DNA of 64,000 nucleotides from Escherichia phage phiC120: sequence record KY703222; one strand, written 5' to 3'. The notes beneath the pieces were generated by a model that saw nothing but the letters and a program-made list of their open reading frames with translations, was not told where the DNA came from and made no database searches. Shown here one piece after another: positions 2,305 through 45,096 of this stretch; position 1 is the stretch's first letter; each line of letters opens with the position of its first letter. Both the position numbers and the translations under genes were made by a program.

Positions 2305-2366
2305 TTTATTCTCCTTCACTTTTGATTTGATAGGGCTACTATAACATAACCCTATCTGTTTATACA

Positions 2367-6435: not shown

Positions 6436-9400
6436 ATGGTTGACATCAAACGTAAGTTCAGGGCCGAAGATGGTCTTGACGCAGGCGGTGATAAGATAGT
6501 TAACGTTGCGCTTGCTGACCGCACAGTTGGCACCGATGGCGTGAACGTTGACTTTTTGGTGCAAGAAAACACCGTACAGAATTATGACGATACGCGCGCG
6601 TATACAAAAGATTTTATTGTTCTTTATGATAATCGTTTTTATCAAGCTTTAAGCGATATTCCAGCTCCGGCAGGCCCTTTCTCTTTGGCTAAATGGAAGG
6701 CAACTCGTACAGATGCAGAATGGATTACAGTTCAAGGCGGAGATTTCCAATTATCAGTAGGTAACTCTATTGCGGTTGATACTTCAGCTGGCACTGATAT
6801 TAATTTCACTTTGCCTCAAAATCCTTTAGATGGCGATACAGTTATTTTGTCTGATATTGGCGGTAGAGTAGGCTATGTAAAAGTTCAAATTACTGCAGCG
6901 GCTCAAAGTATTGTAAACTTTAGAGGACAGCAGGTTCGTTCAGTTTTAATGACGCACCCAAAATCTAAAATGGTCTTCATTTTTAGCAACCGCCTATGGC
7001 AAATGTATGTTTCTGATTACGAACGTAATGCAGTCACAGTAACTCCTGCTAAGCCATATCAGGCGCAACCTAACGATTTTATCATTCGACGTTTTACATC
7101 AGCCGCTCCTATTAATATTACATTGCCTCGCAATGCTAATAATGGCGATATTATTAATTTAGTTGTTTTAGACAAATTAAACCCATTATATCACACAATT
7201 GTCAAAACTTACGATGATACAACTTCTATACGAGAAGCCGGTGTTCATGTAGCAGAAGGACGTAATACTGCGGAAGCATTCTTTGTTTATGATTCTGCTA
7301 ATAGCTTATGGCGTGTTTGGGAAGGTGACCAGAAATCTCGTTTACGTATAGTTCGTAATGATACTGATTTACACCCTAATGAAGAAGTTCTTGTTTTTGG
7401 AACTAATAATGATACAATCTCGACGGTAAATCTTACTTTGCCTACAGATATTTTGTCTGGTGATACTGTTAAAATATCGTTGAATTATATGCGTAAAGGG
7501 CAAACTGTAAAAATTAAAGCTGCCGAAGGCGATACAATTGCTAGCAGTATTTCTTTATTACAGTTCCCAAAACGTTCAGAGTATCCACCTGATGCACAAT
7601 GGGTTTCTGTTAATGAGTTGGAATTTAATGGTGATACTTCGTATGTACCTGTACTTGAGTTAGCTTATATAGAAGATTATTCATCTGAAACAAAATATTG
7701 GGTAGTTCAACAAAACACCGTAACCGTCGAACGAGTCGATGCATCGAGCAATACAACTCGAGCTCGTTTAGGTGTTATTGCTCTTGCTTCTCAAGCGCAA
7801 GCAAATGTTGATTTAGAAAATGCTCCTGGTAAAGAACTGGCTATTACTCCGGAAACATTAGCAAATCGTACAGCAACTGAAACTCGTCGTGGTATTGCTC
7901 GTATTGCAACAACTGCACAAGTTAACCAGAACACCGATTTTGCATTCCAAGACGACTTGATTATTTCTCCTAAGAAATTGAACGAACGTACAGCAACTGA
8001 AACCCGTAGAGGTGTTGCTGAAGTTGCAACTCAGGCTGAAACTAATGCTGGCACAGATGATACCACTATTATTACTCCTAAGAAATTGGATGCTCGTCAA
8101 GGTTCTGAAGTTTTATCTGGTATTGTAAAATACACATCTACGACTGGTACTACAGCTGCTACTATTCGTGGTAATGCTGGGACTAACGTTTATAACAAAG
8201 CTGTAGATAATTTAACTATTTCTCCAAAGGCTCTTGACCAGTATAAAGCTACCCCTACTCAACAGGGCGCAGTAATTCTTGCTATTGAAAGTGAAGTTAT
8301 CGCTGGCGAATCACAAGCCGGTTGGGCTAATGCTGTAGTGACTCCTGAAACTCTGCATAAGAAAACTTCTACTGATGGACGTATTGGTTTAATTGAAATT
8401 GCTACGCAAGCAGAAACTAACACTGGAACTGATTATACTAGAGCAGTAACGCCTAAGACGTTAAATGATAGGAAAGCTACGGAAGGATTATCCGGCATAG
8501 CCGAAATTGCTACGCAAGTTGAATTTGATACTGGAACTGACGATACTCGTATCTCGTCTCCACTGAAAATTAAAACTCATTTTGATTCTTCTGACCGTAC
8601 CAGTGTTAATTCTGATTCCGGACTTATTGAAGAAGGAACCTTGTGGAACCATTATACTCTTGATATTTCTAAAGCAAATGAAACACAACGCGGTACACTT
8701 CGCGTAGCGACCCAAGCAGAATCTAATGCAGGAACTTTAGATGATGTTCTTATTACTCCTAAAAAGCTTTTAGGGACTAAGTCCACTGAAACATCTGAAG
8801 GTGTAATTAAGGTTGCTACTCAAGATGAAACTGTAACGGGAACTTCTGCTAATACTGCTGTATCTCCTAAGAATTTAAAATGGATTGTTCAATCAGAACC
8901 AACATGGGCTGCTACTACGGCAATTCGTGGATTCGTTAAAACTTCATCTGGTTCTATTACATTCGTTGGTGACGATACTCAAGGTAGTACCCAGGACCTG
9001 AATCTTTACGAGAAAAATAGTTATGCTATTTCTCCATATGAATTAAACCGTGTACTTGCTAACTATTTGCCATTGAAAGCTAAAGCCGTAGATAGTAATC
9101 TGTTAGATGGTCTAGATTCTCTTCAGTTCATCCGTAGAGACATCGACCAGACGGTTAATGGTTCTTTAAGTCTTACTAAACAGACCAACCTGAGTGCTCC
9201 TTTAGTATCTACAAGCACTGCTTCTTTTGGGTCCGAAGCATCTGTTACTCGTAGATTAACTCTTAATGACTCTAGCGGTTCCGAAATAGTTTTCACTAAA
9301 GGAACTCAATCTCTTAGTAATAAAGAGAATTTCGTTGTTAGAGCATGGGGTAATAGCGCTACAGATGGTGCCCGTGATACAATATTTGAAGCTGGTGACG

Positions 9401-22759: not shown

Positions 22760-22785
22760 GATGTTATCCTCTTTTAGATAGGACT

Positions 22786-22815
22786 ACTATATCATAGTCC
22801 TACTTAGTTGTAAAC
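22786..22815 (-). promoter_or_regulatory. Sigma70-type early promoter (GTTTAC-18-TATAGT)
   Basis: Minus strand GTTTACaactaagtaggactatgaTATAGT; 8-bp inverted repeat TAGGACTA/TAGTCCTA flanks the -10. Confidence 0.45.
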
Positions 22816-32243: not shown

Positions 32244-32768
32244 TCATTTTAGCAAAATAAAATCAACTTGTTCTGCCAATGAACGTCTAAACATTAATTG
32301 ACAACTTCCGAGGATGAAATCAGGTGCTTCATAGACCGCGATGTAGTATCCTTTAGCTTTCAAGAGTTCAACATCCACCTGGTCATCAAACCATGCATAA
32401 ACCGCGTCAACACTTTCAAATCCAAAATAGAACCCTTGAGCCCAATCTTCACTCAATTCAAATGTGTGCTCAATTCTATAGTATCTTAAGATATTTTGTT
32501 CAAGGAGTTTGTCTTCATTTACAGTAGGACGATTAGGGACATTATAGTTGTCGCCGTGATGGTAGAAGTTACCTGAGATTATTCCATGTTTATCAAGGAA
32601 CTCCCATGTTTCTTCAGAGTTGTCGGTGCCCGACCAACCGTATGGCGAACGAGGTTCTTTATTCCAAGAGGTTTCCCAAATTCTGACGGCTTTACCGTCT
32701 TCGATAGCAATTCCCGGTAATGATTCACGTTGAGTACAAAAACTACGTTCTACGCGGTAAACTAACAT
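32244..32768 (-). CDS. Hypothetical protein (174 aa)
   Basis: ORF track; GAGGAG RBS inside the inverted repeat. Confidence 0.45.
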   Translation of the reverse strand: MLVYRVERSFCTQRESLPGIAIEDGKAVRIWETSWNKEPRSPYGWSGTDNSEETWEFLDKHGIISGNFYHHGDNYNVPNRPTVNEDKLLEQNILRYYRIEHTFELSEDWAQGFYFGFESVDAVYAWFDDQVDVELLKAKGYYIAVYEAPDFILGSCQLMFRRSLAEQVDFILLK

Positions 32769-32772
32769 ATTA

Positions 32773-32817
32773 TTCTCCTCTGGTTGATATGGTTATAATA
32801 TCAAAACCAGAGGAGAA
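32773..32817 (-). repeat. Perfect 13-bp inverted repeat (TTCTCCTCTGGTT / AACCAGAGGAGAA) spanning the -10 of the early promoter; one arm contains the RBS of ORF 32244..32768
   Basis: Read directly. Confidence 0.7.
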
Positions 32818-32823
32818 GTAAAC
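32795..32823 (-). promoter_or_regulatory. Sigma70-type early promoter (GTTTAC-17-TATTAT)
   Basis: Minus strand GTTTACttctcctctggttttgaTATTAT. Confidence 0.45.
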
Positions 32824-32827
32824 AACT

Positions 32828-33247
32828 TTATGCGAAAGCAGCTGGGCTATATTTTTTAATTTGGAATTCAGGAACTACCATGAACTGTCCAGCGAAAACG
32901 ATGTTATAAAGCTTAACACCATCTTCTACCCAACGGTCGCTAATAAAACCAGCAATTTGCTTAGTTTTCCATGGCGTTCCATCAGTTGCCGCAGCAATAG
33001 TGAATTCATGGTCTTTTTCAACAGAAACTGATCTGCATAGTCCCCATTTGAACGCTTTTTCTTCTGGTTCAATGAATTGGCTTGAGACGTAGCCAATGTT
33101 GCCATCAGCATCACGAACTTTAACTTGATGTGGACTAAAGAGTCCACAACTTACAGAAAGAACTTCAACCAACTTCCCAGCAACTTTAGAGCGAGAAGCA
33201 ACAGGTACATATACGTAATCACCTGTAGAGAGATTTGCAATATTCAT
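32828..33247 (-). CDS. Hypothetical protein, tandem paralog 1 of 3 (139 aa)
   Basis: Shares SRSK(V/A)AGKLVEV and GFISD(R/Q)WVEDG(V/K)KLYNIVF motifs with the next ORF. Confidence 0.5.
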   Translation of the reverse strand: MNIANLSTGDYVYVPVASRSKVAGKLVEVLSVSCGLFSPHQVKVRDADGNIGYVSSQFIEPEEKAFKWGLCRSVSVEKDHEFTIAAATDGTPWKTKQIAGFISDRWVEDGVKLYNIVFAGQFMVVPEFQIKKYSPAAFA

Positions 33248-33256
33248 AATAATTCC

Positions 33257-33742
33257 TTAAGCTTTACGAGGAGACACATAGCGAGTGATTTCAGATTCTT
33301 CAACAACTCGGAAGTCACCTAAGAATACAATATTGTATAGCTTTTTACCATCTTCAACCCATTGGTCACTAATGAAGCCACACATAGTATCAGTTTTGCT
33401 TGGATAACCGTATTCATCGATGAAGTCAAATTCTTTATCAGTCTGGAATTCAACGCCTTTGCAAAGGGCCCATTTGAACTGTACATTATGCTCTGTGGAT
33501 TCAACTTTTTCTCTTGAAGCAAAAGCACTACTCACAGGCATTTCCAAGAACTTTGCACGAACATAAGCAAATTTGGTTTCCTGTGTCCCAAAACTAGGAA
33601 TAATACGAACTTTTACCTCAGAATCTTCATCTTTAACGCCTTCTTTAAGTTGAATACTTACAACTTCGACCAATTTTCCTGCGGCTTTAGAACGAGATTT
33701 GTTAGATACGCGAAAGATTTCACCAATAATACCAAGATTCAT
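33257..33742 (-). CDS. Hypothetical protein, tandem paralog 2 of 3 (161 aa from ATG 33742)
   Basis: Paralog alignment puts the start at MNLGII (ATG 33742); the ORF-track extension covers a promoter-like region. Confidence 0.5.
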   Translation of the reverse strand: MNLGIIGEIFRVSNKSRSKAAGKLVEVVSIQLKEGVKDEDSEVKVRIIPSFGTQETKFAYVRAKFLEMPVSSAFASREKVESTEHNVQFKWALCKGVEFQTDKEFDFIDEYGYPSKTDTMCGFISDQWVEDGKKLYNIVFLGDFRVVEESEITRYVSPRKA

Positions 33743-33772
33743 AATTTCTCTCTCTTTGTTTAAATTGAATTC

Positions 33773-33801
33773 ACTATACTCCATCCATCCTTGGATGTAC
33801 A
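33773..33801 (-). promoter_or_regulatory. Early promoter variant (TGTACA-17-TATAGT)
   Basis: Minus strand TGTACAtccaaggatggatggagTATAGT upstream of paralog 2. Confidence 0.35.
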
Positions 33802-33804
33802 ACA

Positions 33805-34299
33805 TTAATTAAGGATATTAACCACAGCACTACGTGGAACTACACTAAAATCACCTGCATGAACAACGTTCAGAAGTTCAACACCGTCTTCAATCCACTG
33901 GTCAGTTACCCATCCATTTACTGGACCTGTGAACGGGCGTCGAATTGAAACATATTTACACAGCAAATCAGTAGGCTCAATAGGCTTAATCAGAGTACCG
34001 TACATACAAGCGATATCCATATCAATACAGATGTCTTTAACGGGTTCTACTTCTTCAATCAACAGTTCAAAGTCTGTGCTTGGAAGGGCGGTAGTAGAAA
34101 TTGTACCATATGAATTTTTAATTTCTAAGAATAACCAAGGGCCTTCAGCTTGTTTGATGAAGTTAACAATAGTGAAACTATTGCCTTGAGTGGCACCTAA
34201 AATTTCACAAAACTTTTCGTAAGCTCGCACTGAAGCACTGTACCAGTTGATTTGTTTTTCGTCTTTCAGGATGTAAGTAGCCGTAGTATTGATATTCAT
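33805..34299 (-). CDS. Hypothetical protein, tandem paralog 3 of 3 (164 aa)
   Basis: C-terminal VTDQWIEDGVELLNVVHAGDFSVVP matches the paralog motif. Confidence 0.5.
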   Translation of the reverse strand: MNINTTATYILKDEKQINWYSASVRAYEKFCEILGATQGNSFTIVNFIKQAEGPWLFLEIKNSYGTISTTALPSTDFELLIEEVEPVKDICIDMDIACMYGTLIKPIEPTDLLCKYVSIRRPFTGPVNGWVTDQWIEDGVELLNVVHAGDFSVVPRSAVVNILN

Positions 34300-34330: not shown

Positions 34331-34360
34331 ATTATACTCCAACCATCCTTGGTTGTAAAC
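34331..34360 (-). promoter_or_regulatory. Sigma70-type early promoter (GTTTAC-18-TATAAT)
   Basis: Minus strand GTTTACaaccaaggatggttggagTATAAT. Confidence 0.45.
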
Positions 34361-39418: not shown

Positions 39419-39603
39419 TCACAGCTCCCTGAGCTTGAACCACAATCAGAATAACTTGTCCCAGAATCACCAGGCCAAGACGATACGTATGAATGATTAT
39501 AACTTGAAGAGCTTGAAGCAGACTTAGGACGAATAACTTCTTCCATCATGCCGTCACCAATGTATTCCCAACTTTTTTCGTGTGTATCAGGAATAGGCAT
39601 CAT
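39415..39603 (-). CDS. Hypothetical Ser-rich protein (62 aa from ATG 39603)
   Basis: Internal ATG pair with GAAGGT RBS; the longer ORF-track form overlaps the upstream ORF by 110 nt. Confidence 0.3.
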   Translation of the reverse strand: MMPIPDTHEKSWEYIGDGMMEEVIRPKSASSSSSYNHSYVSSWPGDSGTSYSDCGSSSGSCE

Positions 39604-43724: not shown

Positions 43725-43753
43725 TTTAACTCCTTAGTTGATTTGATAGGACT

Positions 43754-43783
43754 ACTATACTATAGTCCATCTATAATGTAAAC
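43754..43783 (-). promoter_or_regulatory. Sigma70-type early promoter (GTTTAC-18-TATAGT) for sp
   Basis: Minus strand GTTTACattatagatggactatagTATAGT. Confidence 0.45.
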
Positions 43784-44538: not shown

Positions 44539-44727
44539 TTATCGAAAATCAGCTTCAAAAACTTTCTCGTCATTAACAAATGCTTTAACTAATGCTTTGT
44601 TCACTTCAGCAAGTTGTACCGTAACCCACTCGATTTCTTCACGGTCACCTGATAACATGATATCTTTAGTGAACATCTCACCGCTTTTAAACCAACCGAT
44701 AAAAGTAACTTTAGTTAATTTGCTCAT
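44539..44727 (-). CDS. dmd: Dmd (antitoxin against host RnlA/LsoA-type mRNA endonucleases)
   Basis: 62 aa; resembles T4 Dmd as recalled (V.F.GWFK...MFTK.I......EVNKALVKAF..D.KV.E.D.R). Confidence 0.75.
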   Translation of the reverse strand: MSKLTKVTFIGWFKSGEMFTKDIMLSGDREEIEWVTVQLAEVNKALVKAFVNDEKVFEADFR

Positions 44728-45041
44728 ATTTCCTCACAGAACGCCCATTCAGCATGATAAACTGTAGCACCTTTAGTATTATTCATTTGAACTACGTCTA
44801 CCGGAGAAATTACTCGATAGAGACGTGGTTCACCTCCATAAGAGCGTGCTGCTCGTCCTGCATAAATCTTTGCTAAACCGATATCTTCAGTAAAGAATAC
44901 ACGATTCAAGTTTTTCTTACGTCCGGTTTCAGACAGAACTCCTGTTTCTTCAGGAGGACAAAGCATGTTTTCGATGTTAGCTGAACTACTTGAACCGTGA
45001 TAAAAAATCTTAAATTCTGCTTTACAATCGATGGTTTTCAT
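44724..45041 (-). CDS. Hypothetical protein (105 aa)
   Basis: ORF track. Confidence 0.45.
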   Translation of the reverse strand: MKTIDCKAEFKIFYHGSSSSANIENMLCPPEETGVLSETGRKKNLNRVFFTEDIGLAKIYAGRAARSYGGEPRLYRVISPVDVVQMNNTKGATVYHAEWAFCEEI

Positions 45042-45067
45042 TTTGTTCTCCAGTAGTTGATAGGTCT

Positions 45068-45096
45068 ATAATAACACAACTACTGGAGAAGTAAAC
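45068..45096 (-). promoter_or_regulatory. Sigma70-type early promoter (GTTTAC-17-TATTAT)
   Basis: Minus strand GTTTACttctccagtagttgtgtTATTAT. Confidence 0.45.

Follow-up and report, generated by a model that had tools for sequence, protein, structure and literature searches.

A T4-Type Early Promoter within a Hairpin Predicted to Mask the Ribosome Binding Site of a motB.2-like Gene in Escherichia Phage phiC120

A T4-type early promoter nested in a perfect inverted repeat was identified upstream of a motB.2-like gene in Escherichia phage phiC120 (KY703222), within the 64,000-nt stretch of DNA analyzed here (hereafter the window). One arm of the repeat forms the greater part of the spacer between the -35 and -10 hexamers and is complementary to the Shine-Dalgarno (SD) sequence contained in the other. 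We favor, with moderate confidence, an interpretation of this arrangement as translational insulation, in which the gene is translated only from the RNA of its own early promoter. The core of this reading, already put forward in the original prediction, is that the promoter sits within a hairpin and that RNA begun upstream would hide the SD; it is supported by predicted folds, conservation in four lineages, and a strand specificity that stems from G·U pairs.

Architecture and Genomic Context

A repeat scan of positions 32700-32900 returned a single inverted repeat (32773-32785/32805-32817), whose 13-nt arms are 100% complementary and 19 nt apart, so that the exact reverse complementarity originally claimed was recovered at 13/13 positions. 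Chance rarely produces perfect repeats of this length: with a stem of >=13 bp and a loop of 3-40 nt as limits, the 64-kb window holds two, versus an expectation of 0.017 (first-order Markov sequences; 60 simulations with a maximum of 1). On the (-) strand, the order of features (Table 1) is ...gcaTAAagtt GTTTAC TTCTCCTCTGGTT ttga TATTAT aaccatatc AACCAGAGGAGAA taat ATG. As had been proposed, the 5' arm lies between the -35 and -10, where it supplies positions 1-13 of the 17-nt spacer, and the arm beside the ATG (32768..32766) includes the SD GAGGAG, 6 nt before the start codon. The whole element spans 59 nt and is intergenic, extending from the stop codon TAA (32830..32828) of an upstream MotB-like ORF, 10 nt before the 5' arm, to the ATG at 32768.

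Table 1. Features of the hairpin element, its surroundings, and the second unit of the same design
Feature	Position	Strand	Basis
-35 hexamer GTTTAC, T4-type early promoter	32818..32823	(-)	sequence, promoter scan
5' arm TTCTCCTCTGGTT, anti-SD; only in RNA initiated upstream	32805..32817	(-)	sequence, repeat scan, folding
Extended -10 TGA+TATTAT, within the inner helix and loop of the hairpin	32795..32803	(-)	sequence, promoter scan
Predicted transcription start, 6-8 nt past the -10, between the arms	32788..32790	(-)	inferred from promoter geometry
3' arm AACCAGAGGAGAA, with SD GAGGAG at 32780..32775	32773..32785	(-)	sequence, repeat scan, folding
GGAGAAUAAUA, 10/11 match to RegB/S1 consensus GGAGRAYARAA; overlaps the SD and the A of AUG	32768..32778	(-)	sequence
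ORF174, homologue of T4 motB.2, putatively gated gene	32244..32768	(-)	tblastn, alignment, RB69 annotation
Upstream MotB-like ORF, 139 aa	32828..33247	(-)	ORF list; Pfam PF17613 motB, E=1e-20
Nearest strong upstream early promoter, 12/12 match	34331..34360	(-)	promoter scan
Second unit of the same design, before a 105-aa ORF	45039..45096	(-)	repeat scan, folding

The promoter matches the T4 early form GTTTAC-N17-TAnnnT at 11/12 positions, with a 17-nt spacer and a TGn element, and its -35 hexamer is preceded by the A/T-rich stretch cataaagtt. Including this promoter, about 15-17 T4-type early promoter sites were found on the (-) strand of the window. The same promoter was predicted in RB69 with an HMM as Pe:7443 (7394..7443; Nolan et al. 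2006; PMC1524935 supplement). Measured from the RB69 ATG (7373), the left end of Pe:7443 (7394) is 21 nt away; its counterpart in the window is position ~32789, in agreement with the start predicted here, and a start at this position lies between the two arms. The claim that own-promoter transcripts carry one arm is thus consistent with promoter geometry, which predicts an RNA with a ~21-nt leader that retains the 3' arm only.

The window belongs to a T4-like phage of the RB69/Mosigvirus group, displaying 99.4% identity to phiE142 over 2.4 kb and ~97% identity to many Mosigvirus genomes. The genes around the hairpin are all encoded on the (-) strand, in the order dexA, three MotB-family ORFs (Pfam PF17613), the hairpin, ORF174, and cef, on to topoisomerase gene 39. 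ORF174 shares ~35% identity with T4 motB.2, with an N-terminus (M..YRVE) that is invariant in the alignment, and its RB69 counterpart is annotated motB.2. Pfam searches retrieved no domain for ORF174 or for the 105-aa ORF of the second unit described below. The number and order of MotB-family genes vary among the window phage, T4, QL01, and Q7622.

Read-through across the hairpin is plausible from the sequence, because a 12/12 early promoter lies upstream at 34360 and a scan of the (-) strand between that promoter and the hairpin found no terminator-like site. The promoter at 34360 is the likely source of such RNA. An exact MotA-box site, which is middle-promoter-like, was found once, at 39520, 6.7 kb upstream. 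As the nearest upstream promoter is also early, the temporal benefit of the arrangement would depend on putative longer middle-mode read-through.

Predicted Folding of the Long and Short Transcripts

The original prediction had proposed folding both transcript forms, and the computed thermodynamic difference between them is pronounced. The long RNA, which includes the -35 region, folds with -24.9 kcal/mol (z = -5.3 versus dinucleotide shuffles; RNAfold), whereas the short RNA from the predicted start reaches -0.9 kcal/mol and is no more stable than its shuffles. In the RNAfold structure, the hairpin extends beyond the stem first noted, with a 2-nt bulge followed by a 6-bp inner helix (UGAUAU/AUAUCA). 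The SD has an unpaired probability of 0.75 in the short RNA versus 0.00 in the long RNA, with or without 60 extra upstream nt; the SD is thus predicted to be open in the former and fully paired in the latter, in keeping with the proposal that read-through RNA hides the RBS. The RegB-like site GGAGAAUAAUA is likewise predicted to be unpaired in the short form only. For the window hairpin alone, a role in RNA is inseparable from one in DNA because the palindrome is perfect, as reflected in sense and antisense energies of -23.9 and -25.3 kcal/mol.

In the proposed mechanism, RNA polymerase starting at ~32789 would produce the short leader with its single arm, leaving GAGGAG free for immediate translation of the motB.2-like gene. 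The free GGAG together with the A-rich sequence would also constitute a near-consensus RegB/S1 site, and the short RNA would be the form exposed to RegB. RNA begun further upstream, either at the 34360 early promoter or as middle-mode transcripts, would contain both arms and fold into a ~19-bp hairpin of about -24 kcal/mol in which the SD is buried and the gene remains untranslated. The net effect would be to tie protein output to the gene's own early promoter as an immediate-early pulse, regardless of through-transcription.

Other Early Promoters of the Window

A second unit of the same design precedes a 105-aa ORF (44724..45041, (-) strand) of the RB69ORF040c family, which overlaps dmd. Members of this family are labeled putative ADP-ribosyltransferase in some Klebsiella and Acinetobacter T4-like phage records. 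The unit reads GTTTAC-TTCTCCAGTAGTTG-tgtTATTATagacctat-CAACTACTGGAGAA-caaaATG, with the -35 hexamer at 45096..45091, the 5' arm at 45090..45077, the -10 TATTAT at 45073..45068, the 3' arm at 45059..45046, and the ATG at 45041. Its long RNA folds with -25.0 kcal/mol (z = -5.8) and its short RNA with 0, and the unpaired probability of the SD is 0.61 in the short form versus 0.00 in the long form. The match to the RegB/S1 consensus GGAGRAYARAA (PMC1702504) is complete (11/11). An early promoter, Pe:20537, was predicted at this position in RB69 (PMC1524935 supplement). In relatives, the spacer beside the -35 retains a short anti-SD (aTCTCC versus GGAGA, or CCTC with GGAGGA in contig L044), and the stem is extended to 14 bp in the RB69-type lineage only.

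By folding, the full switch is confined to these two, the genes starting at 32768 and 45041, among about 16 promoter-gene units of the window. Anti-SD 5-mers are nonetheless enriched in early-promoter spacers, occurring in 4/15 versus a background of 2.2% (P = 3e-4).

Small inverted repeats around the -10 are common among the early promoters of the window. Three of them, near 22779, 43750, and 2321, had been singled out in the original prediction as similar but shorter versions of the element. They are real inverted repeats (8 bp at 22779-22786/22795-22802; 6 bp at 43749-43754/43763-43768; 10 nt with 90% complementarity at 2329-2338/2347-2356), but they do not cover the SD: each surrounds the -10, with its downstream arm between the -10 and the predicted start and the SD outside. 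As candidates for the same mechanism they were rejected, since their SDs are equally accessible in long and short RNA. The folds instead place them in a different subtype, in which a stem-loop surrounds the -10 and the SD stays free.

Orthologous Elements across Genera

Regions upstream of motB.2 homologues were compared for T4, QL01, ESh26, Q7622, and 19 IMG/VR contigs. A single-protein query of IMG/VR reached identical elements only, whereas an alignment query reached other genera. No useful consensus emerged from RNAalifold when ten orthologous elements were aligned with MAFFT, the unequal arms being out of register, and the comparison was made by per-sequence folds and an SD-anchored pair table.

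Four lineages carry the element, each with a different stem sequence. The Mosigvirus stem is TTCTCCTCTGGTT/AACCAGAGGAGAA and the Dhakavirus stem is TTCTCCTCATG/CATGAGGAGAA. In Tequatrovirus (T4), the motB.2 element GTTTAC-tTCCTCGGT...ACTGAGGA-taataaaATG forms the stem UCCUCGGU-U-AGUUGUGGU/ACCAUAGCU-ACUGAGGA, which includes three G·U pairs and folds with -23.7 kcal/mol (z = -5.3). In the Kanagawavirus-like lineage, the 5' arm consists of the -10 hexamer and discriminator GAUAUGAUGGCCUC and pairs with GGAGGUCAUCAUG, which comprises the SD plus the AUG. All four lineages have the predicted start flanked by the two arms and the RBS in the 3' arm; what is conserved between lineages is the promoter hexamers, not the arm sequences.

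The pairs inward of the SD core differ between lineages by double changes, that is, by covariation. Counting inward from the CCUC/GAGG core, the first three pairs are T-A, G-C, and G-C in Mosigvirus, A-T, T-A, and G-C in Dhakavirus, and G·U, G-C, and T-A in T4. Within Mosigvirus, the 3' arm is invariant and three stem substitutions were found, two of the three being C->T changes in the 5' arm (AV114 and AlbertHofmann) that retain G·U pairing; the third (348Ecol098PP) replaces a pair by a mismatch at the stem's inner end. The 81-nt RB69 element is 98.8% identical to that of the window, and its loop carries an insertion of 1 nt.

Elements with imperfect arms allow the two strands to be told apart. 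Sense and antisense energies are -23.7/-14.5 kcal/mol for T4, -23.0/-13.8 for Q7622, and -21.1/-9.3 and -17.8/-8.1 for contigs L022 and L015, respectively, a gain of 9-12 kcal/mol for the sense RNA that is owed to G·U pairs. Because the G·U pairs of these imperfect stems exist only in sense RNA, a sense-strand RNA structure is favored over a DNA cruciform.

Survey of T4 and Published T4 Data

The same unit analysis was applied to the whole T4 genome minus 100-110 kb (late genes). The full switch was found in 9/36 early promoter-gene units, including those of motB.2, modB, nrdC.8, regB, denV, 30.8, alc, and an ndd.x ORF.

Published T4 data agree with a promoter-gated translation model and lend it indirect support. 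Of 30 intergenic GGAU sites tested in T4, RegB cut only two in vivo, one of them the SD of motB.2 (PMC1702504), and the nrdC.8 and regB sites are likewise cut in vivo (PMC1702504; PMC3014915). Secondary structure inhibits RegB, and T4 has 16 resistant GGAG sites that lie in stable structures (PMC1702504; PMC3014915). Since the motB.2 SD is cut by an enzyme that structure blocks, infected cells must contain an RNA form whose SD is open. In RB69, regB has diverged (PMC3014915).

Expression classes point in the same direction. T4 MotB.2 is classified as early-RNA/early-Protein, whereas dda, dexA.2, dexA.1, and dexA upstream and motB.1 directly downstream are early-RNA/middle-Protein (PMC9697503 supplement). 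RegB is an early protein while the products of its neighbors vs.3 (upstream) and vs.1 (downstream) are middle, and Alc is early while the downstream pseT.3 is middle (PMC9697503 supplement). Genome-wide, the contrast is nondiscriminating because most promoter-proximal genes also yield early proteins: 7/7 switch genes versus about 14/19 classified nonswitch promoter-proximal genes fall in this class, a difference that is not significant.

Alternative Explanations

Promoter-early stem-loop (PeSL) cassettes recur in the early variable regions of T4-like phages (Arbiol 2010, PMC2839356; Comeau 2014, PMC4122927). In the original PeSL view, the hairpin would act as a terminator or attenuator of upstream transcription and as a site of cassette recombination, and its overlap with the SD would be incidental. 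The full anatomy is indeed present (upstream stop, A/T-rich region, -35, stem-loop, -10, SD, and ATG), one RB49 PeSL stem-loop cut expression of a downstream lacZ like a strong terminator (PMC2839356), PeSLs recombine into mini-circles (PMC4122927), and the gene order around the element differs between the window phage and T4. A role in termination is nevertheless unsupported: a U-tract is absent after the stem in every lineage (UAAUAUG, UAAUAAAAUG, CAAAAUG), the terminator scan made no call for an intrinsic terminator at the hairpin, whose tail UAAUAUGUUA has no U-run, and TransTerm predictions for RB69 include none at 7.3-7.45 kb. For recombination, the copies would have to be identical in sequence, but the two units of the window have different stem interiors. 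Neither role requires the SD, or SD plus AUG, to be captured, yet it always is, despite complete turnover of the stem between genera; the other promoter stem-loops of the window leave the SD untouched, which marks its capture as gene-specific. We therefore regard the original PeSL view as unlikely.

A protective function is similarly improbable as the primary one. Here the hairpin would shield GGAG from RegB in the long RNA, or stabilize or process the polycistronic RNA, with silencing as a secondary effect. The RegB/S1 consensus matches of both window SDs (10/11 and 11/11), the inhibition of RegB by structure with its 16 structured, resistant T4 GGAG sites (PMC1702504; PMC3014915), and the fact that the promoter unit of T4 regB itself shares the design are all compatible with such shielding. 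A GGAG within a helix of -24 kcal/mol is, however, equally hidden from 30S subunits, so that protection from RegB and silencing are inseparable, and the inclusion of the AUG in Kanagawavirus-type stems suggests that the hairpin acts on translation initiation. Shielding complements translational insulation rather than replacing it, and the two may coexist.

Strict translational coupling, in which only a ribosome that terminates on the upstream ORF would open the hairpin and the gene is coupled rather than silenced, appears quite improbable. The anti-SD forms the first bases of the 5' arm, and the stop-to-arm gap of 10 nt in the first unit and 6 nt in the second would allow a terminating ribosome to reach it, at least in the second unit. 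The 10-nt gap nonetheless puts the arm of the first unit at or beyond the ribosome edge, and the SD is still captured where the gap is 13 nt (T4) or 21 nt (Kanagawavirus-type loci). Ribosome footprints indicate that the reach of a terminating ribosome falls short of an arm that starts 21 nt past the stop.

A DNA-level promoter feature (a cruciform or a recognition element for RNAP or another factor) or a chance palindrome is very improbable: the perfect window repeat reads equally well as DNA or RNA and many early promoters of the window bear small inverted repeats around the -10, but the orthologous stems need G·U pairs whose counterparts in DNA and in RNA of the opposite strand are C·A mismatches, the arm sequences are unconserved while the promoter hexamers are conserved, and only 0.017 such repeats are expected per window.

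Implications

Early regions of T4-like phages are characterized by strong tandem promoters and few terminators, which places downstream genes on several overlapping transcripts. A promoter spacer that doubles as an anti-SD would let a gene ignore upstream transcription and deliver its product only in the first minutes of infection. Such insulation could explain why MotB.2, RegB, and Alc are early proteins versus the middle-protein neighbors encoded on the same long RNAs. If this holds, own-promoter transcripts would also be the RegB-sensitive form, defining an "immediate-early-only" class of proteins. At about 60 nt, the design is compact and could serve in synthetic operons to keep translation independent of read-through.

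As a tentative generalization, the anti-SD within the promoter may constitute an unrecognized layer of early control in T4-type phages, covering roughly a quarter of early promoters (9/36 in T4; 2/15 in the window). The mechanism itself would hold little surprise for T4 specialists; how it recurs, and the new view of PeSL stem-loops that it suggests, are directly testable. No description of SD masking by an early-promoter spacer was found in a literature search, and a prior mention is possible in older print literature, which lay outside that search. Rfam covariance models likewise gave no match at the element, the only hit being a sub-threshold isrD elsewhere on the opposite strand.

Comparison with Known Systems

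Anatomically, the element belongs to the PeSL class, whose stem-loop lies between the -35 and -10 or over the -10 of an early promoter that is preceded by a stop and an A/T-rich region and followed by the SD and ATG. The T4/PST promoter form TTTACW N17 TAYWAT is matched by GTTTAC-N17-TATTAT, a promoter of predicted activity, and the stem-loop by a 13-bp stem and 6-bp inner helix whose loop holds the -10. PeSL stem-loops have been read as terminators or attenuators and as recombination sites, with ribosomes and translation unmentioned in the 2010 paper (PMC2839356). The stems of PST and T4 PeSLs were drawn "just upstream of the promoter" (PMC4122927), whereas here the 3' arm of the stem is the SD and no U-tract follows. 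If the proposed mechanism is correct, a subset of PeSL stem-loops would gain a testable function and be recast as translational insulators instead of terminators. The T4 motB.2 region and RB69 Pe:7443 and Pe:20537 are orthologous cases, for which the source papers list promoters only, not a hairpin or SD masking.

RegB/S1 sites resemble the window element in combining GGAG with an A-rich sequence in an early TIR. RegB control, however, is a step carried out by a trans-acting nuclease, whereas the hairpin would be a structural switch in cis that decides which isoform is exposed. A comparable logic is known from the "fold-back inhibition" of IS10/Tn10, in which the upstream segment of read-in transcripts pairs with the transposase RBS. 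Initiation at the transposase gene's own promoter takes place within the paired region and yields translatable RNA, insulating the gene from external transcription. IS10/Tn10 differs in that it is a bacterial insertion sequence, has a weak promoter, and is unrelated in sequence, in contrast to the strong phage early promoters in tandem arrays considered here.

The closest relatives in mechanism are the RBS-sequestering hairpins with an internal promoter described for T4 e, soc, 49, I-TevI, I-TevII/III, and segB and for Aeh1 mobE (PMC3014915; PMC2988022). As in T4 e, soc, 49, and I-TevI, the SD and/or AUG would be buried in RNA started upstream (PMC3014915; PMC2988022), and an internal promoter would yield RNA without the 5' arm, in the present case from a predicted start. 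The internal promoters of the T4 genes are late (or middle), "they are all late genes" (PMC2988022), and the hairpin delays their expression. The window element has no late promoter (gp55, TATAAATA); its promoter is of the immediate-early sigma70 type, its anti-SD is the promoter spacer itself, and its T4 ortholog is early in both RNA and protein. The resemblance to T4 promoter-dependent translational control suggested in the original prediction therefore holds for the hairpin logic and not for the promoter: because the known T4 cases use late promoters, the window element is their temporal inverse and not the same case, with a predicted effect of restricting expression either to the earliest phase or to RNA made at the gene's own promoter. 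It appears to be an early-promoter version of the T4 RBS hairpin, with the anti-SD in the spacer, that is widespread in T4-type phages and would extend the mechanism of gene e, soc, and I-TevI from "late only" to "early only".

Genomic Setting of the Nested Promoters

The 105-aa ORF downstream of the window's second nested early promoter (unit 45096, named by its −35 end) overlaps dmd (62 aa) via ATGA and belongs to the RB69ORF040c family, which is distributed among RB69-like, Dhakavirus, Klebsiella, Acinetobacter, and Aeromonas phages. A Pfam search with this ORF returned no match; the family is annotated as a putative or rifampin ADP-ribosyltransferase in some records of Klebsiella and Acinetobacter T4-like phages.

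In the window, three MotB-family paralogs sit between dexA and the motB.2 homologue, whereas the T4 gene order is dexA, motB.2, motB.1, motB; the order and copy number of the family thus vary between genera. The minus strand, searched from 32.8 to 48.5 kb, contained a single exact MotA-box middle-promoter-like site.

The database record closest to the window is NC_055709 (phiE142; 99.4%), a 121-kb "complete genome" placed in another genus, Carettavirus. Because near-identical relatives of phiE142 are Mosigvirus genomes of ~169 kb, the entry may lack part of the genome or may have been given an odd classification.

Features of the window and of T4 (L005, a T4 sequence stretch)
Feature	Position	Strand	Remark
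Three tandem MotB-family paralogs	32828..34299	(-)	164, 182, 139 aa; PF17613
MotA-box middle-promoter-like site	39496..39520	(-)	TGCTTCA N12 TATAAT; exact match
105-aa ORF (RB69ORF040c family) and overlapping dmd	44539..45041	(-)	
Early promoter inside 14-bp perfect inverted repeat	45039..45096	(-)	predicted masking of SD
Short inverted repeats at early promoters	22779..22802, 43749..43768, 2329..2356		
Short inverted repeats at T4 early promoters	L005:2170-2215, L005:1585-1630		motB, cef
T4 promoters with shared leader	L005:1560-1625		upstream of motA, e.8, nrdC.10, imm.1, cef
ATGs of T4 switch units	NC_000866 8161, 13130, 53885, 62740, 65355, 130253, 136278, 166749		

Promoters Nested in Predicted SD-Masking Repeats

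In unit 45096, the Shine-Dalgarno sequence (SD) of the 105-aa ORF, GGAGAACAAAA, matches the RegB/S1 consensus at 11/11 positions. The unit shares its design with the element at 32773-32817, differing from it in the stem interior. This design recurs in T4 (NC_000866 outside 100-110 kb), where 9 of 36 early promoter-gene units display a full SD switch, with the SD, in computed folding, free in RNA from the unit's own promoter and paired in read-through RNA. Switch units are found at motB.2, modB, nrdC.8, regB, denV, 30.8, alc, and one ndd.x ORF; the imm.1 switch is partial, and in the e.8 unit the short RNA already pairs the SD.

Promoter Leaders and Short Repeats over the −10

Several T4 early units carry a nearly identical leader 3′ of the −10 (TACTATacaactatcaactactgatacgga..ttggagaataaaATG). 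In the window, units 45096, 44524, and 19731 have a related motif, tatcaactac, after their −10 elements. Together, these look like a repeated promoter-leader module.

At many early promoters, spacer and discriminator form the arms of a short inverted repeat (6-13 bp), exemplified by TAGGACTA/TAGTCCTA and GGGACCA/TGGTCCC; the T4 cef repeat is perfect over 13 bp. Such repeats lie wholly upstream of the start site, leaving the SD untouched, and fit the "stem over the −10" sub-type of PeSL, the promoter-early stem-loop cassette of T4-like phages.
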